Shown: positions 16,080 to 39,311, numbered from the stretch's first letter. The stretch: DNA of 64,000 bases from Verrucomicrobiia bacterium (GCA_035501175.1 DATJWQ010000012.1:14424-78423); one strand, 5' to 3'. Notes: generated from the sequence alone by a model not told the origin. Translations and numbers: made by a program.

Positions 16080-17495
16080 ATGACCAGAATCACCCGTTTC
16101 CTGGCTTGTTTGTTAATCGGCCTGTCTCTTTCACGTAGCGCATTTGGTTGGGGACAGGAAGGTCACATGGTCGTCGCGGAAATCGCCTACAATCACCTCC
16201 GCCCGGATGTTAAAGCCGATTGCGACGCTCTCATTGCGGTAAACTTGGGCACGTATTCGAGCAGCGCAACCAGCAATTTCATCATGGCCGCGTCTTGGGC
16301 CGACGATTTCAAAAGCCAACTCGGCACCGGCACTTCCCACTACATCGATCTGCCTCTCTGTATCAATGGCTTGGCGGCGTCGAATATTGGGACTTGCACC
16401 GGGACTTGTAACGATGGCGTGTGCACCAACAACGCTCCCCCCGGCGTACCCAACGTCGTGACGGCCATCAATCAGTACACCGCCACTCTACTTAATCAAA
16501 ACGCGGCGCTCACCGACCGCGCTATCGCGTTGCGCTACGTTCTCCACTATGTCGGCGATATTGAGCAGCCGCTCCATGCATCCAACGGCATTTCCACAAA
16601 CCACCCGCCCCCTGGTGGGGATGCCGGCGGCAACGATTTCACCATCCACGGCACGTGGAGTGAACTCCACGCCCTCTGGGATGCCGGCGGCGGATATCTG
16701 AATGACTCGGGGGTTTCGCGCCCGATGTCTGCCTCTGGCTACACCATCATCAGCAACAAATCAGCCGATGTCGAATCCACTTATCCGTACACTCCAAGTG
16801 TCGGTGCCATCCCAGATCCGATTACTTGGGCCACGGATAGTTACTACTATGCCGAGACCGTCGCTTATGCCAACATCACCGAGGGTGGCACACCCTCCAC
16901 AAGCTATCTGAATAGCGCAAGCGCCACCTCCAAACAGCGCATGGCCGCGGGCGGCAAACGCCTCGCCGATCTGCTCATGACGATCTTTGCCACCAATGCC
17001 GCGAGCTTCACTGCCAGCCCGACCAATGGCGCCGCCCCGCTCAACATAACCTTCACCGATGCATCCACCGGCAGCATCACCAACTGGTTCTGGAATTTTG
17101 GCGACGGCAGCACGACCAACCTCACCGCCTCTACCAATCCGTCGCACACCTACGCCGCCGGCACCTACACCGTGACTTTGATCGTCAGCGGGTATCCTGG
17201 CTCCAGCACCAACACCAGCTCAATCATCGCGGGAACATCTGCGCCACCGTCGCCCCCGGTGATCACGTCCATTACCGCACAAGATACCGACATCCGGATC
17301 ACATGGTTGACCACCGGCGGCACCACCAACGCCGTGCAAGCCACCGTCGGCACTCCCGACTACAACACAAACTTCCTCGATATCACTTCTCCGCTTCTCA
17401 TCCCCGGCAACGGCAACACCAGCACCAATTACACCGATCCCGGCGCCACTACCAACTCCTCCGCAAAGTACTACCGCATCCGGCTGGTGCGGTAG
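16080..17495 (+). CDS. Secreted S1/P1-family nuclease fused to a PKD domain and a C-terminal ~75-aa module ending AKYYRIRLVR
   Basis: Signal peptide, then WGQEGHMVVAEIAY (S1/P1 nuclease N-terminus). PKD motif FTASPTNGAAPLNITFTDASTGSITNWFWNFGDG. The C-terminal module is homologous to that of the ORF at 1-1697. Confidence 0.7.
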   Translation: MTRITRFLACLLIGLSLSRSAFGWGQEGHMVVAEIAYNHLRPDVKADCDALIAVNLGTYSSSATSNFIMAASWADDFKSQLGTGTSHYIDLPLCINGLAASNIGTCTGTCNDGVCTNNAPPGVPNVVTAINQYTATLLNQNAALTDRAIALRYVLHYVGDIEQPLHASNGISTNHPPPGGDAGGNDFTIHGTWSELHALWDAGGGYLNDSGVSRPMSASGYTIISNKSADVESTYPYTPSVGAIPDPITWATDSYYYAETVAYANITEGGTPSTSYLNSASATSKQRMAAGGKRLADLLMTIFATNAASFTASPTNGAAPLNITFTDASTGSITNWFWNFGDGSTTNLTASTNPSHTYAAGTYTVTLIVSGYPGSSTNTSSIIAGTSAPPSPPVITSITAQDTDIRITWLTTGGTTNAVQATVGTPDYNTNFLDITSPLLIPGNGNTSTNYTDPGATTNSSAKYYRIRLVR

Positions 17496-17608
17496 CGCCG
17501 CCAAGACGACGCCTACTTTTCTCTCCCTCACAGGCAGAGGATTAAGGTGAAGGCAACAAAAGCCGCAAGCCCGCGCGGTTGGCGTCAGATTCAAATCCCT
17601 GGGGCACC

Positions 17609-19129
17609 TCAAACCCACAACTGTCGATCCAATGTCCGGTACTGAATCGCTTCCGAAATGTGCTGGGACTGAATCGACTCCGCGCCCTCCAGATCCGCAA
17701 TCGTGCGTGACACTTTCAAGATGCGGTCGTAGGCGCGGGCGCTGAGATTCAGTTCCGTCATCGCCATCTTCAGCAACTGCTGACATTCCTCATCCAGCTT
17801 GCAGTATTCCTTGATCTCTTTCGGCGCCATCCGCGCATTGGTTTTCTCGAACCGCTTCCGCTGCACTGCCCGCGCCGATTCGACCCGCGCGCGAATCTTC
17901 TCGGACGGTTCGCCCGTTGCTTCGCCGGCCATCTCCTTGTATTTCACCGACGGGACCTCGACGTGGATGTCGATTCGGTCGAGTAATGGACCGGAGATTT
18001 TGTTCCGGTATTTTGTGATCATGTTTGGTGAACATCGGCATTCCCGCTTGGGATCGCCATAGAACCCGCAGGGACACGGATTCATTGCGGCCACGAGCAT
18101 GAAGTTCGCCGGGAACGTCATCGTGCCGGTCGCCCGCGAAATCACGACACGTCCTTCCTCCAATGGTTCGCGCAGAGCTTCGAGCACGTCCCGATGAAAT
18201 TCTGGCAGTTCATCCAGAAACAGCACGCCGTGATGCGCGAGGCTGATCTCACCCGGTGTCAGGTTCGCTGTGCCGCCGAGCAGCCCGGCGTTGCTTGTCG
18301 TGTGATGCGGCGCGCGGAATGGCCGCGTCGCCACCAGCGCCTGCCCCTTTGGCAACAACCCGAGAATGCTATGGATCTTCGTTGTCTCCAAAGCCTCGTC
18401 GAGTGTCGTTTGCGGGATGATCGTCGGCACACGCCGCGCAAGCAATGTCTTGCCGCTCCCCGGCGGTCCGATCATCAGAATATTGTGCCCGCCTGCCGCC
18501 GCAACTTCCAGCGCCCGTTTGACGTGCTCCTGGCCCTTGACGTCCACGAAATCTACGTCGTAATTGCGCTGCTGCTGGAAAATTTGCGACGGATCTTCAC
18601 GCAACGGCTGCAATTCGCGTTTACCCGCAACAAACTCCGCCACCTCCCGCAGGTTTTTCGCTGGATACACGTCGATCCCCTGCACCACCGCGGCCTCAGG
18701 CGCGTTGTCCCACGGCACAATCAGTCCGCGCTTCTTCTGGTCGCGCGCGCAAATCGCAATCGGTAGCACGCCATTGATGCTGCGTACCTCGCCGCTGAGC
18801 GCGAGTTCGCCGACAATGGAGAATTCGTTGAGGTTCGGCGCCACAATCTGTTCGTTCACCGCCAAAATCCCGATGGCAATCGGCAAATCGAAGCTCGGTC
18901 CTTCCTTCTTGACGTCGGCCGGTGCCAAATTGATCGTTGTCCGTCCCAACACGTATTTGAAGCCGCTGTTCTCGATGGCCGTCTTGACCCGGTCCCGTGA
19001 CTCCTTCACCGCCGCGTCGGGTAATCCAACAATAATAACTGCAGGCTGTCCCCAGCCCGAATTAACTTCTATCTCAATGGGATAAGAATCGATGCCCAGT
19101 ACTGCCGCAGAGTGGACTTTGGCAAGCAT
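17609..19129 (-). CDS. YifB/ComM-family Mg-chelatase-like AAA+ ATPase
   Basis: [23 protein letters not shown]-terminus, Walker A GPPGSGKT, and length typical of YifB. Confidence 0.8.
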
Positions 19130-19184: not shown

Positions 19185-20750
19185 TTATTCTCGCAGCTTA
19201 ATTGCGCGAATGGCCTCGCCCGCGTTTTGGTCCAGCATTTGGTCCGGGTCCGTCAACTGTTCCCTCAGCACATCCAGGCTATTGGTGCTGCCAATCTGCT
19301 GGAGAATTCGACATGCCTGCCGGCGCGTCTCGAGGTTCTTCTCCTGGAACATCTGCAGCACCGCCGCTTCCGCCGGGGGACCCATGGCCATCAACGCGGT
19401 TGCCGCCTCCTGCTGTCCGGGCTGTGAACCCCGCATGATGTTGTCCACCAACGGCTCAATGGCCCGGTCGTCTTTCAGGCGCGCAAGCCCCTTGATGGCG
19501 TTTTGTTGCATCATGTAGTCGGAGCTTTCCGCAAGCTTGATCAACAGGGGCACCTCGTTCGTTGTTCCGTACGTTTTCAGGAAACCCGAAACCGATTGAC
19601 GAATGGAAAAATCCGCATCGGTCGCCAGCGATGCCATGAGTCCTAACAATTCCGGTGGCACCGACTCGATTGTGGCATTGCCCAACCGATTCGCCGCGGC
19701 TCGTCGGAGGTTGGTATCTTCCGAGGCAAGGTCACCCATCAGTTTTTGGACGTCCGCCGCGGAGACCGGCGCCTGGCTCACGACGGGAACGGTCACGAAT
19801 GCCGCCGCCAGGTCCGCGCCCTCCAACAATCGGCAACTGAGACTGACCCTGGCGTCACGCGACGCCATTTCGGTCGACGCTCGCGAGTTTCCCTGCAATT
19901 CAATCTCGCGTAACATCCCGGCGGACGGGTCGAACGTGAGCGTCCCCGCCACAGCCGCACTGCAACGCGGGTCGTCTCCATTTCTTAGCAGACTGTGCAA
20001 TGCAAGCTCTTTGCGAATGCCAACGGCGTCCGCCGTCGCCGATGAAACCTGATACGCGGCGCGTCGAACCACCGTCAACACCGCCGGTACGGAACGCGGA
20101 CCATAGTTGAAATAAAAGGGTGGGCCGAATTGCGACGATAGAAACCCTGCGGCCGGCCCGAATGCGTACGGATAATCTATCACAGCCGAGTCACCGGATA
20201 TTTCCCATTTCTTGGCGGATGGAGATTCGGGCAATGGCTCGATTAACGCCGTCATCAAAGTCCCAAACGGGATTGGCAAAGGCTGATCCTCAGCATCCAA
20301 TAGCACCCGGCCGCGGTCGTCCACGCGGATTTGGCAACGGTCCGACATCGGTCCCATCATTCGCCCGGACATCACCGGCGGCATAAACATGCCGCGGTTG
20401 AATCCATCCTGGGTCCGGCGGTTCTGCAGATCCGTACGATAGGTCAGACGGAAGGCATTCGAGCCGACTTCGCTTGCCACAATAAACACGCTGCCTGAGG
20501 TGCTTTCCACGCCGGTCTCCCCGCGTACCTGCAGCTCGACGTGATACACGTTCGTCTGACCAAGCGGAAAGCGATAGCGCAGGTCGAGCGCTCCGGATCG
20601 CGCGGATGCGATCGATGCCGCGAGGAGGATCGATCCGATAACTGCTCCGCATTGGAACGCCCTTGGTGCCTGGCTCCGCTTTCGTGGCAAGAAGGGGGTG
20701 GGTGATGACGACGGCGAATCAGACACAAGCTCGGCGGATAGCATCGGCAT
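19185..20750 (-). CDS. Secreted HEAT/ARM-repeat protein
   Basis: C-terminal helical repeats (AIKGLARLKDDRAIEPLVDNI..., ACRILQQIGSTNSLDVL) and an N-terminal hydrophobic segment. Confidence 0.45.
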   Translation of the reverse strand: MPMLSAELVSDSPSSSPTPFLPRKRSQAPRAFQCGAVIGSILLAASIASARSGALDLRYRFPLGQTNVYHVELQVRGETGVESTSGSVFIVASEVGSNAFRLTYRTDLQNRRTQDGFNRGMFMPPVMSGRMMGPMSDRCQIRVDDRGRVLLDAEDQPLPIPFGTLMTALIEPLPESPSAKKWEISGDSAVIDYPYAFGPAAGFLSSQFGPPFYFNYGPRSVPAVLTVVRRAAYQVSSATADAVGIRKELALHSLLRNGDDPRCSAAVAGTLTFDPSAGMLREIELQGNSRASTEMASRDARVSLSCRLLEGADLAAAFVTVPVVSQAPVSAADVQKLMGDLASEDTNLRRAAANRLGNATIESVPPELLGLMASLATDADFSIRQSVSGFLKTYGTTNEVPLLIKLAESSDYMMQQNAIKGLARLKDDRAIEPLVDNIMRGSQPGQQEAATALMAMGPPAEAAVLQMFQEKNLETRRQACRILQQIGSTNSLDVLREQLTDPDQMLDQNAGEAIRAIKLRE

Positions 20751-20906: not shown

Positions 20907-22727
20907 ATGGAGCCAACTCAGACGAGGCCAGAGCGAACAGGGAGATGTTTGTGGGGCTCGGCCAGGCTCCTGGTGATCCTTACGTGCCTGGCCTACCTGC
21001 CCGCCCTGAGCGGTGGGTTTGTGCTGGATGACGGACCGCTCGTTATCCAGAACCGAGTGATCAAGGCTCAGGATGGCCTCTATCACATCTGGCTCACAAC
21101 TGATGCACCGGATTATTACCCGATCACCAACAGCTTCTGGTGGGTGCAGCGTCGTCTGTGGGGAATCCGTCCGTTGGGATACCATGTGGTCAACCTGCTG
21201 CTTCACGCCGCCAATGTCGTGCTGGTGTGGAGAATTCTACAGCGTCTGCGCGTTTCGGGAGCCTGGCTGGCCGCACTCGTATTCGGGATTCACCCAGTGA
21301 ACGCCGCCACGGTAGCATGGATTACCGAGCAGAAGAACACGCTATCAATGTTGTTTGCCGCGGCGGCCATACTTTTCTATTTACGGTTTTACGAAGAGGA
21401 ATCGAGGCGATGGTACCGGCTTTCGCTCGTGCTGTTTCTGCTGGCGTTGCTCAGCAAAACGGCGGTCGTCATGTTGCCGATCGTGCTTCTGGGATGCGTG
21501 TGGTGGTTGCGCGGCCAGTTGAGATGGAAGGATGTTCTCCATAGTGCGCCGTTCTTTGTCGCGTCGTTGATCATGGGATTGGTGACCTTGTGGTACGGCT
21601 ACCATCATCCTTTCGGCGAACCCGGGGCAGAAACGAGCAGCGTCGCCTCACGGTTGGCCGCGGCTGGTTACGCCCCCTGGTTCTACCTGCACAAAGCAGT
21701 TCTCCCGTATGATTTGATGGCGATTTACCCGAAGTGGCAGCCCGATCCCTCCCGGTTGATTTCGTACGTGCCCGGGCTGCTGCTCGTGTGCTGCTTCCTG
21801 GTTTTCTTGTGGAAGCGAGGAACCTGGGGGCGTCCCTTGTTGTTCGGCCTTGGATACTTCGTCGTGATGCTGTTTCCGGTGCTGGGAATCCTGAAGCAAG
21901 GACCCTATCGTCTGACGTTCATCTCCGATCACTGGGATCACTGGCAGTATTACTCCATCATTGGAGTAATCACGTTGACAGTCTCCGCCGGTACGGAAGT
22001 CGCCCATCACTTGGGCAGCCGCGCCAGTCGGTTGAAAACCCCTGTTATGGCTGTCGCATTGATTCTGCTGGGGGCTGCGACATGGTGGCGGAGCTCTTTG
22101 TACGCCTCCTCTCAAGCGCTCCTGCAGGATACTCTGGCAAAGAACCCAACCGCTTGGAGCGCCTGCATCGATCTCGGCGTGGAAATGAAGCAGGCCGGCC
22201 ATGTGCATGCGGCGATTGGGTATTACGAACAGGCCTTGCGTATCAACCCGCGTTTGGCCCAGGCGCACAACAATCTCGGCGACGCGCTTCTGGCTGAGGG
22301 GCGAATGCCCGAGGCCATCGATCACTTCAAGCAGGCGCTCAAGATCAGGCCCGAATATCCGGAGGCCCACGCCAACCTCGGAAATGCGTTGAAACGACTC
22401 GGCAGAATTCATGAAGCGATCGCTCAATATCAAGAAGCTGTACGGATTAATCCCGACTTCGCCCAAGCGCACAACAATCTCGGAAACTCCCTGCTGGCAT
22501 CGGGACAGGTTTCATCGGCGATCGAGCATTATCAGCGAGCTTTACAGATCGACCCTGGTTTTGCCGAAGCGGAATTCAATCTGGCAGTGGCATTGGAAAG
22601 GGCAGGACGATCCGCCGAAGCCGTCACGCATTACCAAGAGGTGCTGAGAATCCGGCCCGACTTTACCCCAGCCGGCGAGGCATTGGCCCGACTACGAGCA
22701 GAACCGGCGAAACCAGCCAACCAGTGA
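20907..22727 (+). CDS. TMTC/DUF1736-like polytopic membrane protein with C-terminal TPR repeats (GT-C-fold glycosyltransferase candidate), paralog 1
   Basis: Conserved N-terminal motif FVLDDGPLVIQNR...YYPITNSFWW...GYHVVNLLLHAANVVLVW. About 10 TM helices and 6 or more TPR repeats at the C-terminus. Confidence 0.65.
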   Translation: MEPTQTRPERTGRCLWGSARLLVILTCLAYLPALSGGFVLDDGPLVIQNRVIKAQDGLYHIWLTTDAPDYYPITNSFWWVQRRLWGIRPLGYHVVNLLLHAANVVLVWRILQRLRVSGAWLAALVFGIHPVNAATVAWITEQKNTLSMLFAAAAILFYLRFYEEESRRWYRLSLVLFLLALLSKTAVVMLPIVLLGCVWWLRGQLRWKDVLHSAPFFVASLIMGLVTLWYGYHHPFGEPGAETSSVASRLAAAGYAPWFYLHKAVLPYDLMAIYPKWQPDPSRLISYVPGLLLVCCFLVFLWKRGTWGRPLLFGLGYFVVMLFPVLGILKQGPYRLTFISDHWDHWQYYSIIGVITLTVSAGTEVAHHLGSRASRLKTPVMAVALILLGAATWWRSSLYASSQALLQDTLAKNPTAWSACIDLGVEMKQAGHVHAAIGYYEQALRINPRLAQAHNNLGDALLAEGRMPEAIDHFKQALKIRPEYPEAHANLGNALKRLGRIHEAIAQYQEAVRINPDFAQAHNNLGNSLLASGQVSSAIEHYQRALQIDPGFAEAEFNLAVALERAGRSAEAVTHYQEVLRIRPDFTPAGEALARLRAEPAKPANQ

Positions 22728-22845
22728 CACGGGTCGGCAGGTCCACTACGGGGCGAACCGGACGCGTTGGCAATATTGCTGAAGTTTGCGCTGCCGTGTA
22801 AATCAACGTTGACAGAATCATGGGAACTTCCGCAACAATCAGCCC

Positions 22846-25026
22846 ATGACGATCACGAGTTCCTCCAGTAGCGGACCCCAGGAAGGCCAGACGGAGGTGA
22901 ACAGACCATTCGGAATGGCGACACTCCAGAGGATTCGGTGGCTTCCCGGGCTGGCGCTTATTCTACTCGTGTTTATCGCCTACCAACCGGTGTGGCGCGT
23001 GGGTTTCATTTGGGATGATAACTACTATGTCACCGATAATCCGGTGCTCAGATCAACCCGAGGGTTGGAGAGGATTTGGTTCGAACCGTCGTCAACCGTC
23101 CAGTACTACCCACTGGTCTTCACCAGTTTCTGGACGGAGTATCATCTATGGAAGTTGCAGCCTCTCGGATATCATTTGATCAACGTTCTCCTGCACGCTC
23201 TGAATGCAATCCTTCTCTGGTTCGTTCTGCGGCAGCTCAAGGTTCCCGGCTCGTGGGTGGCGGCGGCCATCTTCGCGCTTCATCCGGTATGCGTCGAGTC
23301 CGTTGCCTGGGTCACGGAGCGGAAAAACGTTCTCTCCGGCCTGTTCTATTTTTTAACGATCCTGGTATATCTTCGATTCCGACCGTTGACGACCGGATCG
23401 GAAGCTCGTCCGTGGGATTGGCGGTACTACCCTCTCGTTTGCGCGCTCTTTCTTTGCGCCTTGTTCAGCAAGACAGTGACAGCTTCGTTGCCGGCTGCGC
23501 TCGCATTGCTGATCTGGTGGAAGCTGGGCCGGGTATCCAAGGAAGATGCTGTTGCGCTGGCACCGCTGTTTGCAGCCGGTGCAGCTTTCGGGTTCATGAC
23601 CGCATGGATCGAGAAGCATCACGTAGGCGCTAGGGGCGCGGAATGGGTGTTGTCCCCTGCGCAACGCTGCCTTCTGGCAGGACGCGCGCTGTGGTTTTAC
23701 GCCGGAAAAGTCTTCTGGCCACGTAACCTCACCTTCATCTATCCGCGGTGGGAAATCGACGCTCGAAAAATATGGCAGTACCTGTTTCCAATCGCGGCGA
23801 TGCTGGCGCTCGCGGCGTTGTGGTTGCTACGCTCCCGAATTGGCAGGGGGCCGCTGGTCGCGGCGCTGTTTTTCGCAGGGACGTTGCTGCCCGCGCTTGG
23901 CTTTGTCGATATTTTCCCGTTTCGCTATTCCTACGTCGCCGATCATTTTCAATACTTGGCCAGTATCGGCTTGATCGGCCTGGCGGTCGGGATTGGTGCC
24001 ACGGTCTGCCGACGGGCTGGCGAAGGGCTTCCCCGCCTTGGGGCGATTAGCGTGGCAGTTGTACTCCTGTTGCTGGGCGCATCCACCTGGAAACGCGCGA
24101 AGGTGTATTGGAACTTGGAAACCCTGTGGGAGGATACGATCACCAGGAATCCCAACGCCTACATGGCCTACACCAATCTGGGCGACGCTCTTCTTCAGAA
24201 AAACAAAATACCGGAGGCGATTGAACGCTACAAACAGGCGCAGCGGCTCGAACCCAACGAGCCCGACGCGCTCGCCAGTCTGGGAAATGCTTACCTGCAT
24301 CTGGACAAGGTACCGGAGGCCATTGGCTATTTCCGTCAGGCCATACAGCTCAAACCCAGCTTTGGCCCCGCATACACAGGGCTGGGGCTGGCATTGGAAC
24401 GCGAAGGCAAAATCCCCGAAGCCATCGCGCAGTATGAACAAGCGGTCCGGACCGACCCTCACGATGCACAAGCGCACAGCCGGTTGGGACTCCTCGTGGG
24501 CGGCACAGGGAATGCGACGGAAGCAATGCGGCACTATCATCAAGCGCTTCTCATTACCCCGGACGATCCCCAGATCCATAGCAATCTGGCAACCCTCCTC
24601 GAGCAAATCGGACGCACCGTGGAGGCCATCCAGCAGTATGAACTGGCGATACAGCTCAGCCCGGATCTGGCGCAGGCGCACAAGAACCTCGGCATAGCTT
24701 TCTTGCGGACCGGACGGGTTCAGGAGGCGCTCGCCGAACTCCAGCGCGGCGTGCAGCTCGCCCCTGAGGATGCGGATGGACACAATAATCTCGCAATTGC
24801 GCTCGCCGTTTCGGGCAGGACGCAGGAAGCCATGACGCAATGGGAGCAGGCAATCCGTCTGAGACCGAGCGATGCGAAGGCGCAACTCAATCTGGCTATC
24901 GCATTGGAAAAGACCGGACGGGTTTCGGAAGCTGTTGAGCATTATCAGGAGGCGCTAAAGGCCCAGCCCGATCTCACTGCGGCAAGAGACGCGTTGGTCA
25001 GGCTCCGATTAGATCAAGGTCAATAA
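22846..25026 (+). CDS. TMTC/DUF1736-like membrane protein with C-terminal TPR repeats, paralog 2
   Basis: FIWDDNYYVTDNP...GYHLINVLLHALNAILLW motif, TM region, and 8 or more TPR repeats. Confidence 0.65.
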   Translation: MTITSSSSSGPQEGQTEVNRPFGMATLQRIRWLPGLALILLVFIAYQPVWRVGFIWDDNYYVTDNPVLRSTRGLERIWFEPSSTVQYYPLVFTSFWTEYHLWKLQPLGYHLINVLLHALNAILLWFVLRQLKVPGSWVAAAIFALHPVCVESVAWVTERKNVLSGLFYFLTILVYLRFRPLTTGSEARPWDWRYYPLVCALFLCALFSKTVTASLPAALALLIWWKLGRVSKEDAVALAPLFAAGAAFGFMTAWIEKHHVGARGAEWVLSPAQRCLLAGRALWFYAGKVFWPRNLTFIYPRWEIDARKIWQYLFPIAAMLALAALWLLRSRIGRGPLVAALFFAGTLLPALGFVDIFPFRYSYVADHFQYLASIGLIGLAVGIGATVCRRAGEGLPRLGAISVAVVLLLLGASTWKRAKVYWNLETLWEDTITRNPNAYMAYTNLGDALLQKNKIPEAIERYKQAQRLEPNEPDALASLGNAYLHLDKVPEAIGYFRQAIQLKPSFGPAYTGLGLALEREGKIPEAIAQYEQAVRTDPHDAQAHSRLGLLVGGTGNATEAMRHYHQALLITPDDPQIHSNLATLLEQIGRTVEAIQQYELAIQLSPDLAQAHKNLGIAFLRTGRVQEALAELQRGVQLAPEDADGHNNLAIALAVSGRTQEAMTQWEQAIRLRPSDAKAQLNLAIALEKTGRVSEAVEHYQEALKAQPDLTAARDALVRLRLDQGQ

Positions 25027-25308
25027 GGCGACGGAACGCCTTCCCCCGCGACCAGCCTGGCTCTTCCTGACCGCTCGACAATCGCGGTCCTCAGCCCTGT
25101 GGTATTCATTGTGGCCACATGAGTCCTGGCCCGCCCTCGGAGACTCCGGCTGGTTGCCCAGTTTGACCTTCGGCGGCAGCCCAAAGACCCCAATCGCAGG
25201 AAGTCCAATGCAACAAGGCAAGAAAATCGCAGGGCAGGCGGCTCCCGCCGAATCCAATCAGATTTGTCTCGTTATTCCTCCAGTCCACTGGAGTTCCCGT
25301 CAAAAGCA

Positions 25309-25350
25309 AACGGGTCGCCCCGAACTTCCCGGGGCGACCCGTCAGACTGA
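25309..25350 (-). terminator. Rho-independent terminator downstream of the PEP-CTERM gene
   Basis: Perfect 11-bp stem GGGTCGCCCCG/CGGGGCGACCC with a 7-nt loop, followed on the minus strand by UUUGCUUUUG. Confidence 0.6.
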
Positions 25351-25368
25351 AACAGCTATAGTCGCAGT

Positions 25369-26235
25369 TTATGAGCGACGGCGGCGCAATGCCAACAGTC
25401 CGCCAATCATGCCCAAGCCCGCCAGCACAAGCGTCGAAGGCTCAGGAACAACCGCCAATGGCGTGAATTCCATCGGTCCAGTCGTTCCGTTGTAGGAAAC
25501 GAATCCGAAGACGTCGTACGTGTACCCGTTACCGATTGGGGTTCCAGCCAACTGCGTCGACGCAGAATAGGAGGTTGTCCAGTCGAAGCACGTCATGCTG
25601 CCAGTGCTATCAGCGATTGTAAAGGTCTCACTGCTGATGTTCGAGTTGTAGCTTGGTAGAGTCGTCATACCAATGGAAGACGTGATCACCGCATTGGTAA
25701 TTTCCAAGTAGTAGCCAGCGATGCTCAAGCTGCCCGGCTGGTAGTTGGCGCCCATGCCCGAACTGGTGAGGGCGCTGACGCTGAATGCAGGTGCCGCCGG
25801 CACCGTGTTTCCGGTCGATAGAGTGTTGATGAAGTTATTCGAAGCCGCAACTGAGGAGAAGGCAATCTCTGGAAGCGAATGGAACGGACTCCACTGCCCA
25901 TTCAGCTTCAGCATATCTCCCACGCTAAACGAACTGGGAGCGCCGGGCAAGGCCGCCAAGGTCGACGCTGAGACGAAGACATCCATTGAACCCGGGCTTG
26001 TATCCGCAGCGAAGATTGACCAACCAGTAAACGTATGGCCGCCAAATACCCCTGGCTGCGAACCGATGGCTGTCACGATCGGAGAGCTGTCCCACGTTAC
26101 GTTTGCATTGTTCCCGTAAAACTGCTCAATGTCGTTCGCATTATCGGCGTACGCCTTTACGCCACCCAACACTACAGCCGCTGCGATTGCAACGGTGACA
26201 AAACTCTTACTCATACCCGCCAAAGAAATTTCCAT
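25369..26235 (-). CDS. PEP-CTERM sorting-signal protein (secreted; exosortase substrate)
   Basis: C-terminus VPEPSTLVLAGLGMIGGLLALRRRRS (PEP motif, TM helix, Arg cluster) and an N-terminal signal peptide. Confidence 0.8.
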   Translation of the reverse strand: MEISLAGMSKSFVTVAIAAAVVLGGVKAYADNANDIEQFYGNNANVTWDSSPIVTAIGSQPGVFGGHTFTGWSIFAADTSPGSMDVFVSASTLAALPGAPSSFSVGDMLKLNGQWSPFHSLPEIAFSSVAASNNFINTLSTGNTVPAAPAFSVSALTSSGMGANYQPGSLSIAGYYLEITNAVITSSIGMTTLPSYNSNISSETFTIADSTGSMTCFDWTTSYSASTQLAGTPIGNGYTYDVFGFVSYNGTTGPMEFTPLAVVPEPSTLVLAGLGMIGGLLALRRRRS

Positions 26236-26328
26236 TCTTCTCCCTACCCTTTCTTGATACCATTAGTTGCTCGGTTCTCACCACGCCCTCCCTCGCTGGG
26301 GGGCGGCCGCCTTCCTTATCCGTGCGCC

Positions 26329-26356
26329 ATGATACGGAAACGGGGTATTTTTGCAA
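26329..26356 (-). promoter_or_regulatory. Candidate sigma70-like promoter for the PEP-CTERM gene (-35 TTGCAA, 16 nt, -10 TATCAT on the minus strand)
   Basis: Located in an AT-rich island, about 100 nt upstream of the start codon. Confidence 0.3.
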
Positions 26357-26548
26357 GACTTTTTTTCCAAAATATGTGTGAAGAACCGTAGCCGATCCGG
26401 TGACAAGTCTGTGTCAGATCGGTGGTAACCTGCCGGCTCTACCAACAAAATTGAGCATTCTGGGGTAGACAGATGCATATTTCACTCTTTTGCCAGCGGG
26501 AATCCCCTCTTACGAAGCCAACACCCGGTACCCAGTTCTGGTTGTCGG

Positions 26549-27289
26549 TCAGCCACGGACCATCAAACAATCAAATTCGATCGCCCGACACCCGTCCATC
26601 GCGACCGGAAACATTCCCGCAACGACAAATCCCGCCCGTTCGTACACCGCCACGCCTTCCGTCCATTGAGGCATTCCATCGTAAATGGGAATTACGGACA
26701 CCTCGGATTGGAGGGCGACCACACGTTCCACTTGCCGCCCCATTCCGCGAAACACTTCCTGATCACAGCCCTGGGTGTCCATCTTGAGAAAGATCCGCCG
26801 CGCATGGCAGTTGGGAACGACTTCCTTCAACACTTGCTCCAGCGGGCGAACCGAAACCATCTCCTCACCCTCCTCGCTCGCCCCCGGTCCCCACCGCCGT
26901 GTGGCAAATTCATTTACGCGCAAGAATGAACTGAGCACGGTCTCCCGAAATACATGAATGGCTCGCGTGGCATTCTGTTCCCCCAAAGCCCACGGATAGC
27001 ACTTCCATTGTCGGTCGCCAGCAACAGACTTGCTCAGACGATCAAACGCCCGGGCGACAGGTTCGAATGAGATGATCTCACCCCTGTAAAACGAGCGCAC
27101 ACCCCGGGCAAATTGTCCCTCATTGGCGCCCACGTCCACCACGAGATCAACGCCGTATTGTTCGAACACGCTTCGAATATGCATCTGGTAGGCAAGATCC
27201 ATGACGGCTCTGACCTTCTTCCGCAATGGTCTCGTACCGGCCACCATCCCGCAGCACCGCTTGATGCCCTCTTTCACGCCGTCCATCAT
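26549..27289 (-). CDS. FkbM-family SAM-dependent methyltransferase
   Basis: DLVVDVGANEGQFARGV motif typical of FkbM/Methyltransf_21. Confidence 0.7.
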   Translation of the reverse strand: MMDGVKEGIKRCCGMVAGTRPLRKKVRAVMDLAYQMHIRSVFEQYGVDLVVDVGANEGQFARGVRSFYRGEIISFEPVARAFDRLSKSVAGDRQWKCYPWALGEQNATRAIHVFRETVLSSFLRVNEFATRRWGPGASEEGEEMVSVRPLEQVLKEVVPNCHARRIFLKMDTQGCDQEVFRGMGRQVERVVALQSEVSVIPIYDGMPQWTEGVAVYERAGFVVAGMFPVAMDGCRAIEFDCLMVRG

Positions 27290-27450
27290 CGTGTCACCGC
27301 CATGTAGGTGCTTTCCCCGTCACGCCAGAGAATGCCCAAAGCCGCGCGCTACAGACAAGCACGAATCGCAATGTGGTCCAACGCCGCCAAGTTGGGGAAA
27401 AAAGGCCTCTCGTCCTCGAAAGAGCGCGCGGTCGCCACTCCTGCAATCCC

Positions 27451-29895
27451 TCACCGGGTAGTCCGGACTTGCGTTCCAGCGGCGGGTTGGCGGTACACCC
27501 GTCCGGCACGATACAACCGCTGCCGAATCTCAATCTTTGCCGCCAGCTGAGAATGACCGTCGCCACGCGCCAATTCGATTGCCCTCTCGGCCGTCGCCAC
27601 CGCATCGGTGAATCGGCCATCCGCAGCGTAGGCAGCGGCAAGAGTATCCAGATACACAGCCACACGATTATCCGACAATCGGCAGGCTTCTTCGGCCAGT
27701 CCGACGGCTCGAACGGCATTTGTCGCGTCCACCGCCGCGCGCGTGGCTAATACCCACGCGAGATTGTTCAACGCCTCGGGATAATCCGACTTGATCCGCA
27801 ATGCCTCCTCGTATTGCCCGATCGCGTCTTCGAGCCTCCCCGCCCCTTCCAGAGCCTCCCCCAGTCGGTAGTGCGCCTCCGGGAAGGACGGCTGGAGTCG
27901 GAGAACCACTTCAAGGTGTTTGGCAGCCTCCCCGCTCTGTCCCAGCGCCAAGAGGACCTTTGCCAGGTTAAACTGCGCCGCTGGATAGTCGGGCTTGATC
28001 CCGACCGCCGCCTTGTACTTTTCCTGCGCCTGCGTCAAAAGCGATTCCGCCTCTGTCCCCGTTCTCGTTCTCGCCTGCTCCCAAAGCACGGAACCCCAAT
28101 TGTTCAACGCCTCGGCAAGATCGGGCTCGATCCGCAACGCCTGCTGGTATTTCTCTGTCGCCTCCTGCAATAACGCCTCGGCCGCCTCACCTCTCCTGGC
28201 TCGCGCCGAATCCTCCAGCGCGATCCCCCAATCGTTGTAAACCCCGGGATCATCAGGCGCCAGTCGCGCCGCTTGCTGATACTGATCGATCGCCTCCGCC
28301 GTTCGCCCCGCACGCTCCAGCGCAACTCCCAGATCGCGATGGGTCTCGGACGAATCAGGCGCAATCTGCAGGGTGCGCTGGTACTGCGCAATCGCCTCCT
28401 CCATTCTTCCCGCCCGCATCAGGGCATCCGCAAGGTTCTTGCGAGCCGTCACGAAATCGGGCTCGATCCGCAACGCCTCTTCATACTGCCGAATCGCTTC
28501 GTCCAATTCGCCCAGCTTTTCGAATGCCGCGCCAAGATTGACTCGCGCTTCCGGGTAGTCGGCATTCAGCTCCAACGCCCGCCGATACTGCGCCATCGCC
28601 TCCTCGACTCGCCCTTTATGCCACAGCGCAAGTCCGAGATTCAGGTGCGCCAGCCATGCCGTCGGATTCTTCTCCAGGTTGTCTCGCCAAAGCGTTTCCG
28701 CATCGCGATAGATCCCCGCGCGTGTCCACGTCGCCATTCCCAACACCACCAGCATCGCCGCCGCGACCAATGCGCCCACGGGCCGCCCCCGTTGCCCCCA
28801 GCGCCGAAAAACCGTCACCCCTCCGGCCGCCACAAGCGCAATGATTCCAACCACGGCGTGATATTGCCAATGGTCGGCCACAAACGCGTACCGATGAAAA
28901 CTCTGATGGAACAATCCCGACACCGGGAAAAGTGTCACGACGAAATACCCCAACCCGAACAACATTGGCCGTCCCCATGACCCTCGCTTCAGCCAAAGCA
29001 CCACGAAGCACGCCACCAAAAGAATCCCCGGCACACACCACATCCATCCCGCACCCCCAACATCCCATCTCGGGTAAATCACCATCGCGTTCCACGGCGC
29101 CAACGCCTTCCACAAGTAAAACCACGGCGTCGCCCCCGCCACCGCCACGCGCGCAAGAATCCCGCCCGCGGAGACCGCCTGCCCCTCCGTCGCCTTGGGA
29201 TACTGATACAAGATGGTTACCAACCCCATCACCAGCGAAAGCGCGAAGAACGGTATGGTCCGACCGATATCCTTCGCCTGCACCCGGCCCCGCATCCACC
29301 ACACGCAACCCAACAGCACCACCGGCAGCATCACCACCGCCGTCTTGCTCAGAAGCGCCAGCACATACGCCCCCAGCGCCAACCCGTACCACTTCCACCT
29401 CCCGCCCTCGCAAAACCGCAGGTAGCACAAAATGCCGATCGCATAGAACAACATCGATAGCACGTTCTTCTGTTCGCTGATCCACGCCACGCTCGCACAG
29501 TTCAGCGGATGCAACGCGAACACAGCCCCAGCCAACCACGCCCCGGGAATTTTCAACCTTCGCAGAATCAGCCACACCATCGCCGCGTTGATCGCGTGAA
29601 GGAACACATTCGCCACGTGATATCCCGTCGCATGGTCGCCCCAGAGCCGCCACTCCAGCCACCACGCGGTCGAGGTCATCGGCCAGTAATCCGGCGCGTC
29701 CGTCGTAAACCAGAACTGACGAAGTCCATCGCGCGCATGAACCATCCGGTTTTCAACAATCAGTGAATCATCATCCCAGATAAACCCGCCACGCAATACG
29801 GGCGCATACGCCAGAAACGTGATCGCCATCAACACGATGGCGAGAAGCCAGTCGCGATTGGGATATCCCTGAGTCCTTGATGCGTTTGCCACCAC
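27451..29895 (-). CDS. TMTC/DUF1736-like membrane protein with a long C-terminal TPR array, paralog 3
   Basis: GFIWDDDSLIVENR...YWPMTSTAWW...GYHVANVFLHAINAAMVW motif, TM region, and about 12 TPR repeats. Confidence 0.65.
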   Translation of the reverse strand: MVANASRTQGYPNRDWLLAIVLMAITFLAYAPVLRGGFIWDDDSLIVENRMVHARDGLRQFWFTTDAPDYWPMTSTAWWLEWRLWGDHATGYHVANVFLHAINAAMVWLILRRLKIPGAWLAGAVFALHPLNCASVAWISEQKNVLSMLFYAIGILCYLRFCEGGRWKWYGLALGAYVLALLSKTAVVMLPVVLLGCVWWMRGRVQAKDIGRTIPFFALSLVMGLVTILYQYPKATEGQAVSAGGILARVAVAGATPWFYLWKALAPWNAMVIYPRWDVGGAGWMWCVPGILLVACFVVLWLKRGSWGRPMLFGLGYFVVTLFPVSGLFHQSFHRYAFVADHWQYHAVVGIIALVAAGGVTVFRRWGQRGRPVGALVAAAMLVVLGMATWTRAGIYRDAETLWRDNLEKNPTAWLAHLNLGLALWHKGRVEEAMAQYRRALELNADYPEARVNLGAAFEKLGELDEAIRQYEEALRIEPDFVTARKNLADALMRAGRMEEAIAQYQRTLQIAPDSSETHRDLGVALERAGRTAEAIDQYQQAARLAPDDPGVYNDWGIALEDSARARRGEAAEALLQEATEKYQQALRIEPDLAEALNNWGSVLWEQARTRTGTEAESLLTQAQEKYKAAVGIKPDYPAAQFNLAKVLLALGQSGEAAKHLEVVLRLQPSFPEAHYRLGEALEGAGRLEDAIGQYEEALRIKSDYPEALNNLAWVLATRAAVDATNAVRAVGLAEEACRLSDNRVAVYLDTLAAAYAADGRFTDAVATAERAIELARGDGHSQLAAKIEIRQRLYRAGRVYRQPAAGTQVRTTR

Positions 29896-29914: not shown

Positions 29915-30337
29915 TCAGTAGATGTACGGTTCGGCCAGATCGAAGGCGTTTTGAATCAGCCGAATGTCCGTCGGTCGACGCGCACCCTTAGGTTGCACGA
30001 CTTCCACCACGTCGAACCGAAAATGAATGCGGGGATTTCCCAGAAGCCTCAAATAATCCAGCGCCGCCCGGCTCACGTTCCGCTGTTTGTCACGATCCAC
30101 CTTCTCGCTCGGCGTCCCAAAGTCCTCCGTCTTGCGTGTCTTGACCTCCACGAACACCAGCCAGTCCTTGTGCCGCGCAATGATATCGATCTCCGCCTTG
30201 CCGCTGTGGAAATTGCGAAGCAGAACTTTGTAGCCCTGCCGCCTCAGGAACCGCGAGGCCGCTTTCTCCCCACGGTCGCCCAGGATCTGCCGCTCGGTGC
30301 GGTGATCAACTCTTTGTTTAAACCAGCCCTCAAACAT
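29915..30337 (-). CDS. YraN-family (UPF0102) endonuclease-like protein
   Basis: GEKAASRFLRRQGYKVLLRNFHSGKAEIDIIARHKDWLVFVEVKTRK. Start taken at the internal MFEGWF. Conserved rnhB-yraN adjacency. Confidence 0.7.
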   Translation of the reverse strand: MFEGWFKQRVDHRTERQILGDRGEKAASRFLRRQGYKVLLRNFHSGKAEIDIIARHKDWLVFVEVKTRKTEDFGTPSEKVDRDKQRNVSRAALDYLRLLGNPRIHFRFDVVEVVQPKGARRPTDIRLIQNAFDLAEPYIY

Positions 30338-30338
30338 G

Positions 30339-31004
30339 TCACGAGGCCCCAGCCTGCGCCGGGCTATTGGTGCTCGCAAACAGGTCCACTTGCACCGGTT
30401 CGATGGTCTCGCGCACGGGCGCAAACGACCGTCGGTGCACGGGCGACGGACCATATCGCCCCAGCGCCGCCAGGTGTTCGGGCGTCCCGTAGCCCTTGTG
30501 TTGGGCGAAATTGTACTGCGGGAATTGCTCGTGAATCCGCACCATCATCCGGTCCCGCGTGACCTTGGCGATCACACTGGCCGCGGCAATGGAATAACTC
30601 TTCGCGTCGCCCTTCACGATCGCCGTCTGCGTCACCCCCATCAGCGGCACGCGCAACCCATCCACCAGCACGTGGTCGGGTCGCACCTTCAATCCATCCA
30701 GCGCAAGCTGCATCGCCCGCCAGGTCGCCCGCAGAATGTTGTAGCTGTCAATAATGTCGACATCCGACACCCCCACGGCCCAGTGAAACTCTTCGTTGGC
30801 TGTCAGCTCGGCGTAGATGTCCTCGCGCTGCTGTTCGGTAAGTTGCTTCGAGTCGTTGAGGGTCTTGTGTCTGAACTCCGAAGGTAAAATCGCCGCCGCC
30901 GCCACCACCGGCCCCGCCAACGGCCCCCGCCCGGCCTCGTCAATCCCCGCAATAATCTTCGCCCCCTTTGTGTACGCTTTCTTTTCGTAACGGAGCGTTG
31001 GCAT
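30339..31004 (-). CDS. rnhB: Ribonuclease HII
   Basis: IAGIDEAGRGPLAGPVVAAA N-terminal motif. Start taken at MPTLRYEKK. Confidence 0.85.
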   Translation of the reverse strand: MPTLRYEKKAYTKGAKIIAGIDEAGRGPLAGPVVAAAAILPSEFRHKTLNDSKQLTEQQREDIYAELTANEEFHWAVGVSDVDIIDSYNILRATWRAMQLALDGLKVRPDHVLVDGLRVPLMGVTQTAIVKGDAKSYSIAAASVIAKVTRDRMMVRIHEQFPQYNFAQHKGYGTPEHLAALGRYGPSPVHRRSFAPVRETIEPVQVDLFASTNSPAQAGAS

Positions 31005-31685
31005 GGCGCTGCCCCGCAGTGTGCGGATTTCCCCGCCGGGAGTCAACACCGCGCCTGCGGTGGCAGAATACTGCGGTATTGTAGCCGCGAAACTTTTTCG
31101 CGGGATAACAAGGCTTGGAATAATGCCGCGAATGAGATTCGCCGCAACAAATCACTTCATCCGCCAAGTTCCGCCGCAATGCGCTCCCATCCATGGCGCA
31201 GGACGGCGCGCGCGTCGGCACACATACCGACGCGATCAGGATGCGGTACGCGGATTACATACGCGCGGCGAAACCGACCGTGGCGGATTTTGCAGTGAAG
31301 TTGCATTGAGGGGAAGCGGGGCGGCTGGCGAGAAGAGTGCCTCGGCCCTTCTGAGCGGAACGACGGACAAGGTGGCGGGTAGGTGCGGGGGATACCTGTC
31401 AGTGACAGGCATCGAATGAGGATGCGTTTGTGAGAGGATGATGTCAGGGAGCGGGGCTGATTTGGAAGACTTGGGATTCTGCGGGTTGTGAAGAGCTGTC
31501 TTTGACTGATCCACTACCTAGTACTACCAGGCAGCAGGTGACAGACGGCGAATTTGCAGGTTGTGAGGCGTGGATCCCCTCGGGGTTTACAATTGTACCA
31601 ATGATCAGACCGGCCCCCTACAACGCATTCCCAAAGCGAGATGTCACGAATACAGGTCTGACCCTGAAAACACTGACCCTCAGAC

Positions 31686-33065
31686 CTGTCCAAAATGACT
31701 TTCAAGACGCGGTAGAAAAGGCCTCCGTTTCGGGTGATAACGGTTGATGGAAATGATCGAACCATCAACACCCAGCCACGGAGGCCGTCTCCATGCTACG
31801 CTGCGCCAGTCTGTTCAGCCAAGTCTTATCGTTGATCAACCGCCATCAGTTTGCCGCTGCCGCCAAGACGTTTCGCGCCGAGAAGGGCGCCAAGGGGTTC
31901 CGTTGTTGGGACCAGTTTGTGGCGATGTTGTTTTGTCAACTGGCCCAAGCCAAGAGCCTGCGAGAGATCGTCCAAGGTCTGCTCTGCTGCGAAGGCAAGC
32001 TGCAGCATCTGGGCGTGCGTGCGGCTCCGAAGCGCTCCACTCTCAGTTACGCCAATGCCCATCGTCCGTGGAAGCTGTTCGAGGCGGTGTTCTATCAACT
32101 GCTGGAGCAGTGTCGGCAGGCGGCCCCCACCCGCACCAAGTTTCGGTTCCAGAACAAGCTGCTGTTGCTGGACGCCACGGTCATCGAGTTGTGCGTGACG
32201 ATGTTTGACTGGGCGCGGTTCCGCCGCAGCAAAGGGGCGATCAAGCTGCATCTGCTACTCGATCATGACGGGTATCTGCCGGTGTTTGCCCACCTCAGCG
32301 AGGGCCGCCAGCACGAGATGAGGCTGGCCCGGGGCTTGTGTTTGCCGCGTGGCAGCGTGGTGGCGATGGACCGGGCGTATGTGGATTACCGCTTGTTTCA
32401 GAACTGGACAGAGCGGGGCATTTACTTTGTCACCCGGCTCAAGCGGAAAGCCAACTACTGGGCGGTGCAGAGACGGCGGGTGCGCAAGCAGGCTCTCATT
32501 CGCAAGGACGAACTCATTGAGTTGACGCCGCTGGCAGCCGGTCGGGTCTGTCAGGCCACGTTGCGTCGCATCGAAGTGTGGGTGCCCGACAAACAGGAGA
32601 CGCTCGTGCTGGTGACCAACCAGTTGCAGTGGAGCGCCGCGACCATCGCGGCCATCTACAAGGACCGCTGGCAGATCGAGCTGTTCTTCAAGGCGCTGAA
32701 GCAATACCTCAAGATCAAGAGCTTTGTCGGCACCAGCGTCAACGCCGTGCACATCCAGATTTGGACAGCCTTGATTGCCATGCTGTTGGTCAAGTACCTG
32801 CAACTGCGGGCCAAGATCGCTTGGGCGCTGAGCAATCTGGTGGCCCTGCTGCGCTGGAATCTATTCACGTACCGCGATCTGTGGCGCTGGATCGACGCGC
32901 CGTTTGATACCCCGGCGGGCTCCGAACTGGCCGTCCAAACCTGGCTCATGTTGGACAGCATCCAGCCCGCACAACCGACAACCTCCACCTGAGACGAGCC
33001 TCAGACCAATGAAACCAGGCCGAAAAACAACTGCCCTCTGTCCCAAATCAGATTATCTTGGACAG
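31686..33065 (+). mobile_element. IS4-family insertion sequence (boundaries approximate)
   Basis: Single DDE transposase ORF. Candidate imperfect terminal inverted repeats CTGTCCAAAATGA (31686) and the reverse complement of TCATCTTGGACAG (33065). Confidence 0.5.
31793..32992 (+). CDS. IS4-family DDE transposase
   Basis: N-terminal DUF4372-like region (FRAEKGAKGFRCWDQFVAMLFCQLAQAKSLREI) and a DDE_Tnp_1-like C-terminus (LLLDATVIEL...VAMDRAYVDY...KDRWQIELFFKALKQ). Confidence 0.8.
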   Translation: MLRCASLFSQVLSLINRHQFAAAAKTFRAEKGAKGFRCWDQFVAMLFCQLAQAKSLREIVQGLLCCEGKLQHLGVRAAPKRSTLSYANAHRPWKLFEAVFYQLLEQCRQAAPTRTKFRFQNKLLLLDATVIELCVTMFDWARFRRSKGAIKLHLLLDHDGYLPVFAHLSEGRQHEMRLARGLCLPRGSVVAMDRAYVDYRLFQNWTERGIYFVTRLKRKANYWAVQRRRVRKQALIRKDELIELTPLAAGRVCQATLRRIEVWVPDKQETLVLVTNQLQWSAATIAAIYKDRWQIELFFKALKQYLKIKSFVGTSVNAVHIQIWTALIAMLLVKYLQLRAKIAWALSNLVALLRWNLFTYRDLWRWIDAPFDTPAGSELAVQTWLMLDSIQPAQPTTST

Positions 33066-33167
33066 CAGTGCCGTCCACCAGCATCAGGGTCACATCTAAA
33101 CAAAGGTACATTCGCCATTGCGACACTCACGCCCAAGTCCCCTCCGCTTACCGGATCGCCCCCCGCT

Positions 33168-33221
33168 GCCCCGTATCCGTCCCATCCGTCCCATTCGTCC
33201 TATCGGTCCCATTCCGCTCCC
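33168..33221. repeat. Imperfect 9-bp tandem repeat (CCGTCCCAT)x~6
   Basis: ccccgtat ccgtcccat ccgtcccat tcgtcctat cggtcccat tccgctccc, visible directly in the sequence. Confidence 0.7.
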
Positions 33222-33338
33222 GCCCCCTCCGCTCAACCGATCGCCTGCCGCGCCATCGCCCGCCGTATTCGTGCCATGCGTGCTCATTCATGGCTCCGCC
33301 CGCCGCTGTGCTGCCTTGAGCGGGCGACGCTATGACTC

Positions 33339-34619: not shown

Positions 34620-34641
34620 CCAACGGGAAGAGCCAATCACG

Positions 34642-35559: not shown

Positions 35560-35831
35560 GGAACGGAACAGAGGGAAACAGGGATCAGGGAACCCCTGAG
35601 CAACTCATCGGGAAAGCCGACTCCCGGCGACCTTGTCGAAGTCCGATCCTGATTCCGGGGTCTCATCTGATTCATGTCATATTTGCCATCCGGATCCTCT
35701 CGCGCCCCGTTCCCCGCCCGCCTCGCATTTTGTCCTATGCGAGAATCATCTCTCGCCCGTATTGCACAGTGCCTGTTGCGTGGTAGGGTTCACTGTTCAA
35801 GGATCGCAGTCCGTTAACTCAAACCGAAGGA

Positions 35832-39234: not shown

Positions 39235-39311
39235 GATCGCATTCTCCCGGCGGGAAGAGTAGGGTTCAGATTCCAGCCCGTCAACCGGGATTATCGTTTG
39301 CTTTCTGGAGC

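Follow-up and report, generated by a model that had tools for sequence, protein, structure and literature searches.

What are three large, related membrane proteins carrying tetratricopeptide repeats (TPRs) doing on either side of a gene for a small exosortase cargo? The question is raised by a 9-kb locus (positions 20,907 to 29,895) within a 64,000-nucleotide stretch of DNA from a Verrucomicrobiia bacterium (GCA_035501175.1, DATJWQ010000012.1:14424-78423), hereafter the window. Here two such proteins (paralogs A and B) are followed by a PEP-CTERM protein, which we call PEP-X, an FkbM-family methyltransferase and a third large protein (C). A reading made from the DNA alone (the sequence-only reading) took the locus for a candidate island of protein O-glycosylation and methylation, built around three TMTC-like proteins of the DUF1736 family. 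We find that the locus exemplifies a module conserved in Verrucomicrobia, in which an array of genes coding for GT-C/TPR proteins lies next to the gene for a small exported PEP-CTERM protein. The five open reading frames on which the sequence-only reading was built are all present, at the positions and sizes it gave, and its architecture for A, B and C, a polytopic domain followed by TPRs, stands. The locus is laid out as follows.

20907-22727, plus strand: paralog A, 606 aa, with a GT-C-fold membrane domain over residues ~1-400 and TPRs over ~402-598; subfamily 1a
21027-21032, plus strand: DD codons of A (D41-D42) in the first periplasmic loop, a GT-C catalytic-type motif
22846-25026, plus strand: paralog B, 726 aa, architecture as A; subfamily 1b
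23014-23019, plus strand: DD codons of B, residues 57-58
25309-25343, minus strand: terminator-like hairpin with a 16-bp stem, 11 G-C pairs and a T-rich tail (consensus scan only)
25369-26235, minus strand: PEP-X, a PEP-CTERM protein of 288 aa with a signal peptide, two OB folds and a PEP-CTERM signal
26549-27289, minus strand: FkbM-family S-adenosylmethionine (SAM) methyltransferase, 246 aa, between C and PEP-X
27451-29895, minus strand: paralog C, 814 aa, architecture as A with the longest TPR domain; subfamily 1a
29770-29775, minus strand: DD codons of C, residues 41-42

The association of these proteins with a PEP-CTERM protein, on which the island idea was founded, proves to be real and conserved across lineages, recurring in many uncultured Verrucomicrobia. 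Where orthologs of A lie on long contigs, arrays of 2-6 GT-C/TPR genes adjoin a gene for a PEP-CTERM protein of about 290-320 aa. At one related locus (L001), rnhB and yraN are followed by one enzyme gene, the PEP-CTERM gene and then four enzyme genes on the opposite strand; at a second (L004), five or six enzyme genes precede the PEP-CTERM gene; and at a third (L005), six enzyme genes, the PEP-CTERM gene and one further enzyme gene are followed by ComM. Loci were counted from the PEP-X side after de-replication by PEP-X sequence, a locus being informative when 3 kb or more of flanking DNA was available on one side. At 90% identity there were 56 PEP-X clusters, 20 of them informative, and 17 of these had a neighbour belonging to the enzyme family within 10 kb; at 70% identity the corresponding figures were 27, 12 and 11, the GT-C domain itself being present in 10. 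If a genome is supposed to hold 40 such genes, the probability of this linkage by chance is about 1e-7. Counting from the enzyme side, we found a PEP-CTERM protein within 10 kb in seven of eight loci picked only through their homologs of A (P between about 2e-5 and 1e-2, depending on the background assumed). Four of the seven carry PEP-X; a 217-aa PEP-CTERM protein (L012) or a 686-aa PATR PEP-CTERM protein (L013) may stand in its place, and the P0051 locus has two PEP-CTERM proteins of about 220 aa. At the eighth locus (L006), which has no PEP-CTERM protein within that distance, the place is taken by two small secreted proteins with a beta-helix. In both directions, the linkage is far beyond chance under generous background densities. 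Some of these loci are orthologous, with rnhB-yraN or ComM as common flanking genes in the window, L001, L005 and L007, but the linkage also holds at eight loci whose flanks differ (L004, L008, L010, L011, L033, L038, L060 and L067). PEP-X is usually the immediate neighbour of the arrays, some 200-1000 nt away. Within the window, all three members of the enzyme family lie in the 9-kb stretch and none in the other 55 kb, and the sole PEP-CTERM protein, by a strict C-terminal pattern, is the one between A/B and C.

The three large proteins have a common N-terminal polytopic domain (38% identity between A and B, 51% between A and C), and each has many TPRs, with multiple TPR families scoring far above cut-off. 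In an AlphaFold2 model there are about 11 membrane helices, with TPR helices from residue 402; the odd helix count, together with a periplasmic DD loop, would place the TPR domain in the periplasm, while a positive-inside count on the model's helix boundaries was uninformative. The signature that the sequence-only reading saw in all three is there in its GYHxxNxxLHxxN part, but its acidic motif needed amendment, being DDxxx(V/I)xxN with one residue more than had been written, and B has YYPLV where the signature called for Y(Y/W)P(I/M)T. The placing of the DD pair on TMTC catalytic residues is borne out: D41/D42 of A align with D31/D32 of human TMTC3, which constitute motif M1 (PMC7801869), in a BLASTP match (E 2e-14, residues 33-199 against 23-201) and again in hhalign, where a 28-member profile matches TMTC3 with a probability of 99.25% (E 5.5e-20) over residues 10-193 only, that is, motifs M1-M4 and transmembrane segments 1-6.

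The DUF1736 label, in contrast, has to be given up. A search with PF08409 (TMTC_DUF1736) leaves the N-terminal domains of A, B and C unmatched even at E ≤ 10, and ten divergent paralogs from the arrays were likewise negative at E ≤ 1. As a positive control we used the N-terminal 396 residues of human TMTC3, in a copy whose numbering fits Table 4 of PMC7801869 at every residue listed there (D31/D32, S66-P72, R143/E145, K188-T193, D303/W304, P358/P361 and E375/R376/Y379); PF08409 detects this control at residues 259-330 with 109 bits. The motif of the sequence-only reading maps to the loop-1/TM2 region of TMTC (TMTC3 ~31-100), outside DUF1736, and our alignment with TMTC3 ends before the DUF1736 segment begins. 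Judged by sequence comparison, A, B and C are GT-C-fold proteins homologous to TMTC over the first half and are not DUF1736 proteins as Pfam defines them.

Other family models place the proteins in the same superfamily. PMT_2 (PF13231) recognises A with 34.0 bits and C with 32.1 bits against a gathering threshold of 26.1; B has no PMT_2 match alone, but our family hidden Markov model, which scores C at 634 bits, places B in the same family with 498 bits. The fold is that shared by PMT, ArnT and STT3; the nearest relative in sequence is TMTC and the nearest in structure Pmt4. Searches of PDB sequences with phmmer and with the 28-sequence profile found no match for the membrane domain, and none of the NCBIfam models matches the membrane domains of A, B or C. 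In all, the enzyme family comprises 59,755 clusters at 50% identity (E ≤ 1e-3).

What has been conserved within this family bears on whether its members are enzymes. The DD pair is invariant in 35 close and 28 divergent members. We aligned the latter 28 membrane domains, drawn from the window and nine related loci, with 21-63% identity and from five subfamilies, and found D41, D42, W62, H129, P130, K184 and P191 to be invariant, with P72, H93, H100, Y260, P267, Y274, R304, P324 and Y348 nearly so. This set includes the catalytic DD, the proline of M2, the phosphate-binding lysine of M4 and the tyrosine of M7; A, B and C themselves keep the Y-x-P of M2, the M4 lysine and the M7 tyrosine. Such conservation across divergent paralogs argues for a catalytic role.

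The array genes are drawn from five subfamilies across the loci, two of which (1a and 1b) occur in the window. The sequence-only reading saw a triplication in A, B and C, and this does not hold. For both A and C, proteins from other genomes (63-67% identity) are closer than the other member of the pair (51%); the nearest to C, at 67%, is L007:5279 of another locus. B groups with L005:7738, L006:12061 and L001:20495, with which it shares 42-45% identity. Because all three have closer relatives in other genomes, the paralogs must be ancient and not the product of recent triplication.

The putative partner of these arrays, PEP-X, is a PEP-CTERM protein by curated cut-offs, as had been supposed (PF07589, 30.0 bits against 20.7; TIGR02595, 24.9 against 16). 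It has a hydrophobic N-terminal segment (signal peptide), two OB-fold beta-barrel domains and the C-terminal sequence VPEPSTLVLAGLGMIGGLLALRRRRS, in which the sorting signal is VPEPST...RRRRS. No equivalog cut-off was reached among the named NCBIfam PEP-CTERM subfamilies (PepA, XDP1, THxN and others), the best being PepA with 22 bits against 80, and PEP-X represents an undescribed family with two OB folds. Homologs at L001, L004 and L005 are 36-47% identical to it over the whole mature domain. The family is small, with 34 clusters in a database of 5.8 billion proteins; a scan using a tight alignment located it at 4 loci in 185,579 species genomes, and metagenomes yielded 54 loci. Serine and threonine make up 26% of the mature protein, and across the family 19 columns are conserved as Ser/Thr, including an invariant T-S-x-S (T221-S222-x-S224); PEP-CTERM proteins are described as enriched in residues associated with glycosylation (PMC12188702). 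The mature part has one lysine and no arginine against 14 acidic residues, which makes nucleic-acid binding by the OB folds unlikely. No exosortase gene was found in the window or the related loci.

Enzymes that combine a GT-C membrane domain with TPRs and glycosylate proteins are an already known kind, exemplified by TMTC and TfpW. The animal TMTC1-4 (CAZy GT105) resemble A, B and C in architecture, with an N-terminal GT-C domain of ~11 helices and, after it, TPRs that face away from the cytoplasm, an orientation predicted for A, B and C as well. The two groups also have in common the DD of loop 1 (M1), the YxP of M2, an 'HPxxxE/A-V' motif and an M4 lysine in register, and some array paralogs at other loci have retained the RxD/E of M3, the KE of M4 and the (E/D)RxxY of M7. 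TMTC1-4 act on folded beta-sandwich domains (PMC7801869; PMC11292533). The differences are that A, B and C have no PF08409 match and nothing alignable beyond TMTC3 residue 193; that they are bacterial, so that the donor cannot be dolichyl-phosphate-mannose as such; and that proteins of their type sit in multi-paralog arrays beside a candidate substrate gene. The closest functional analogy to the arrays is TfpW of Pseudomonas aeruginosa/paraeruginosa, the pilin D-arabinofuranosyltransferase, compared here from its published description: a GT-C protein with 11 predicted transmembrane segments, whose first periplasmic loop holds an essential DDX and whose C-terminal TPR domain is periplasmic, encoded beside its substrate gene pilA (bioRxiv 10.1101/2020.04.19.049825). 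TfpW differs in being a single gene rather than an array, in having a type IV pilin and not a PEP-CTERM protein as its substrate, and in its dedicated D-Araf donor pathway. The PMT enzymes (GT39; yeast Pmt1/2/4 and actinobacterial Pmt) lack the C-terminal TPR domain of A, B and C, which in turn have no MIR domain; none of the PMT chains in the PDB is matched significantly by sequence, and B falls below the PMT_2 threshold. ArnT (GT83), the lipid A aminoarabinose transferase, resembles our proteins in its GT-C fold and DD/DE loop, and was the best modelling template for both TMTC (PMC7801869) and TfpW (bioRxiv 10.1101/2020.04.19.049825). Finally, PrsT of the XrtA/PEP-CTERM system (TIGR02917) is, like A, B and C, a TPR protein tied genetically to PEP-CTERM systems, and its model partially matches their TPR regions (A 91, B 178 and C 128 bits, all below the cut-off of 312.2 bits); PrsT, however, is a lipoprotein and has no membrane domain of GT-C type.

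In proposing a function for the module, we favour an explanation that we think has about an even chance of being correct: the arrays would O-glycosylate the neighbouring exosortase cargo in the periplasm, drawing on polyprenyl-phosphate sugars, while the TPR domain picks out the folded acceptor. It starts from the homology to TMTC, the GT-C fold, the invariance of residues of catalytic type, the architecture of the proteins and the conserved linkage of their genes. The lack of polysaccharide polymerase, flippase and export genes at the loci also speaks for it, and it has precedents in TfpW, which modifies pilin, and in the TMTC enzymes, which modify cadherins. PEP-X would be exported via Sec and fold in the periplasm into its two OB-type barrels, tethered by its C-terminal helix, and the periplasmic TPR domain of each enzyme would bind it in this folded state. 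As the acceptor, it would receive on its Ser/Thr hydroxyls a sugar that an enzymatically active membrane domain moves from a polyprenyl-phosphate-sugar donor, using the DD loop, H-P, Lys184 and the (D/E)(H/R)xxY loop on the periplasmic face. Division of labour among the paralogs may supply different sites, different sugars or chain elongation. Exosortase would then cut the PEP-CTERM tail, and the glycoprotein would end on the cell surface.

Several observations weigh against this proposal. The ligand-binding motifs of TMTC are M2 SHKSYRP, M3 RxD, M4 KE(T/Q)xxT and M7 ERxxY (PMC7801869, Table 4). A, B and C lack the SHK of M2; they have QKN or RKN in place of the M3 RxD and its acid, KT at M4 with threonine for the metal-binding glutamate, and DHxQY at M7 with histidine for arginine, and the DUF1736 segment with the DW of M5 is not recognisable. 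Since ligand-binding residues are altered, neither sugar nor donor can be deduced from TMTC. Neither in the window nor in the related loci is there a linked gene for donor synthesis (polyprenyl-phosphate glycosyltransferase) or for a flippase. Three of the 20 informative PEP-X lineages (L023, L051 and L057) have no enzymes nearby, and L009 carries only a TPR protein, with no GT-C gene. Other secreted proteins of the window also contain 20-23% Ser+Thr, so the composition of PEP-X is not diagnostic by itself. Finally, the enzyme family, with its tens of thousands of clusters at 50% identity, is vastly larger than PEP-X with 56 at 90%, and therefore cannot as a whole be dedicated to PEP-X.

The rival that survives best, and that we nonetheless consider unlikely, makes the arrays the builders or decorators of a polysaccharide or glycolipid, periplasmic or on the surface, to which surface-anchored PEP-X binds through its OB folds; the linkage would then reflect a common product rather than an enzyme-substrate pair, and PEP-X would resemble the PEP-CTERM floc protein PepA, which links exopolysaccharide to cells. 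The Emb/Aft arabinosyltransferases and ArnT use polyprenyl-phosphate sugars on glycan or lipid acceptors, and in holding several divergent paralogs the arrays are like the Emb/Aft sets with their multiple enzymes. Many GT-C enzymes act on lipids or glycans (PMC7801869). OB folds can bind oligosaccharides, which tells against our proposal, and with so few basic residues in PEP-X, nucleic acid is an improbable ligand. The array at L013 also adjoins another GT-C gene: a protein of the YfhO family, which is a different GT-C family, is encoded at 16205-18391 on the minus strand, directly after three tandem GT-C/TPR genes. Against this rival, the nearest relatives in sequence (TMTC) and in structure (Pmt4) are both protein O-mannosyltransferases; the TPR domains of TfpW, TMTC and OGT are associated with the binding of protein substrates; and the gene tables of the related loci hold no polysaccharide polymerase, flippase or export genes, whether of Wzx/Wzy/Wza type or GT2/GT4 polysaccharide genes.

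Alternatively, the arrays could constitute a general system of periplasmic O-glycosylation with many exported clients, each paralog serving one fold class, and PEP-X being a single client kept alongside by the greatest dependence or by inherited synteny; this we think distinctly unlikely. The enormous size of the enzyme family speaks for it, as do the arrays without PEP-X at L006, L012 and L013 and the replacement of PEP-X at some arrays by other PEP-CTERM proteins (~200-220 aa, or the 686-aa PATR protein) or by beta-helix proteins; and the shared flanks of the window, L001, L005 and L007 mean that part of the linkage is inherited. On the other side, linkage persists across the eight loci with differing flanks, and PEP-X is usually found immediately beside the enzymes. 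The beta-helix proteins at L006 (16725-18580; 268 and 271 aa) are Pel9A-like and lie inside a six-gene GT-C/TPR array; we considered them as relatives of PEP-X and rejected this, given 15% identity and no PEP-CTERM signal.

The full model of the sequence-only reading, a DUF1736/TMTC glycosylation-plus-methylation island in which FkbM O-methylates sugars and a fourth polytopic TPR protein takes part, now seems very improbable, and for the conserved module it is largely refuted. Its family assignment for FkbM is right (TIGR01444, 68.7 bits against 37.7; PF05050, 41 against 22.7), FkbM-family enzymes often methylate sugars, and the gene stands between C and PEP-X on the same strand, in an arrangement stable within the species. 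However, it has no homolog at the 12 other PEP-X or array loci searched and recurs only in two contigs of the same species (L014 and L015), each with a PEP-X of 100% identity. No transmembrane segment or signal peptide is predicted for it; FkbM is a cytoplasmic, species-specific insert outside the conserved module. Since SAM is absent from the periplasm, FkbM would, if involved at all, have to methylate the donor sugar in the cytoplasm. The fourth protein does exist (6982-8604, minus strand, 540 aa), with ~10-12 hydrophobic segments and 2-3 C-terminal TPRs. However, it lacks a DD loop, and hhalign against the GT-C/TPR family gives a probability of 1%; its membrane domain has no Pfam or NCBIfam match, and it represents a second, different polytopic-plus-TPR architecture unrelated to A, B and C. 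PF08409, as described above, has no match in A, B and C or in the ten array paralogs. Chance adjacency has a certain plausibility, in that both families are numerous in Verrucomicrobia, where TPR proteins are everywhere, Verrucomicrobium spinosum alone having 65 PEP-CTERM proteins (PMC1569441), and the GT-C/TPR family is very large, but it is scarcely credible given de-replicated counts that far exceed expectation both ways and the failure of either family to recur in the remaining 55 kb.

The window comes from a metagenome-assembled genome of an uncultured member of the Verrucomicrobiae, the best database match to A being 100% identical. The surroundings of the locus are housekeeping genes: on the left, one gene that is ComM/Mg-chelatase-like and one with HEAT repeats, and on the right, yraN, rnhB and an insertion sequence (IS) transposase. 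C begins 19 nt downstream of yraN. As listed, the yraN reading frame (29915-30454, minus strand, 179 aa) overlaps rnhB (30339-31049, minus strand) by 116 nt; its true start probably lies further downstream, to judge from the L001 ortholog of 140 aa. The NCBI start for A is 22 residues shorter (584 aa) and would cut the conserved first membrane helix. Counts of promoters and terminators in the region do not exceed those in shuffled sequences. The one notable element is the 16-bp hairpin that follows PEP-X, 26 nt past its stop codon, where PEP-X and B converge. The HEAT-repeat protein directly left of the cluster (19185-20750, minus strand) resembles by eye one at L009 (4602-6455, plus strand), which lies a few kb from PEP-X in a metagenome-assembled genome labelled Planctomycetaceae.

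PEP-X has a second recurrent neighbour. It is often followed by an N_methyl plus DUF1559 (SBP_bac_10) pseudopilin-like protein, to which three loci add a BACON_2 protein of ~900-1050 aa, as in these stretches:

L004, 13748-20366: pseudopilin-like and BACON_2
L011, 13883-17830: pseudopilin-like and BACON_2
L023, 4872-9050: pseudopilin-like and BACON_2
L008, 5801-6757: pseudopilin-like
L009, 10726-11847: pseudopilin-like
L010, 8709-9617: pseudopilin-like

At L023 the trio of PEP-X, pseudopilin-like and BACON_2 proteins occurs with no GT-C gene. These genes may be a second set of partners for PEP-X, or may be there by chance since DUF1559 genes are very numerous in these phyla.

Elsewhere in the window, within the stretch 31793-43014, the IS transposase (DDE_Tnp_1 and DUF4372) parts the rnhB-yraN block from a lipid- or polyketide-like cluster with a carrier-protein/thioesterase (33339-34619), a GT2 protein (34642-35559), a B12-binding radical SAM protein (39312-40712) and a ketosynthase (40429-43014). 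The GT2 protein was considered as a donor synthase and dropped, its NCBIfam matches being generic and far below every cut-off. Beyond it, at 43256-53868 (plus strand), five large secreted proteins are encoded one after another; all have beta-helix domains of Pel9A-like or pectate-lyase type, preceded in three of the five (836, 823 and 851 aa) by Ig-like domains, and the stretch looks like a pectin- or polysaccharide-degradation cluster. At 1806-3470 (minus strand) there is a rhomboid protease with an N-terminal extension of ~360 aa, which reaches 52 bits with the rhombosortase model TIGR03902 against a cut-off of 84.

Among the surface proteins of soil, sediment and biofilm bacteria, PEP-CTERM proteins form a major class, and their glycosylation has been suspected since they were first described; we know of no enzymes that modify them. 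A full-text literature search of incomplete coverage found no earlier description of the arrays or of their link to PEP-CTERM proteins, while automatic annotation at JGI labels many homologs 'protein O-mannosyl-transferase'. The multi-subfamily arrays, their conserved pairing with an exosortase cargo and the two-OB-fold PEP-X family appear to be new. With ~60,000 clusters at 50% identity, the GT-C/TPR proteins are among the largest unannotated membrane families in metagenomes, where they usually go by the label 'tetratricopeptide repeat protein', and the conserved pairing offers a concrete and testable hypothesis of enzyme and substrate. We put forward only tentatively the wider possibility that these loci perform a combinatorial, domain-specific protein O-glycosylation, in which TMTC-related arrays of five subfamilies are each paired with their own PEP-CTERM cargo; they might then correspond in bacteria to the animal TMTC-cadherin O-mannosylation pathway, to which they may even be related by descent, and be the missing enzymes behind the suspected glycosylation of PEP-CTERM proteins. 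PEP-X, for which there is a confident structural model, is a defined candidate acceptor for the biochemistry of bacterial TMTC-like proteins, and the arrays allow a comparison, from the bacterial side, of the ways in which TMTC-type enzymes pick the folded domains on which they act.

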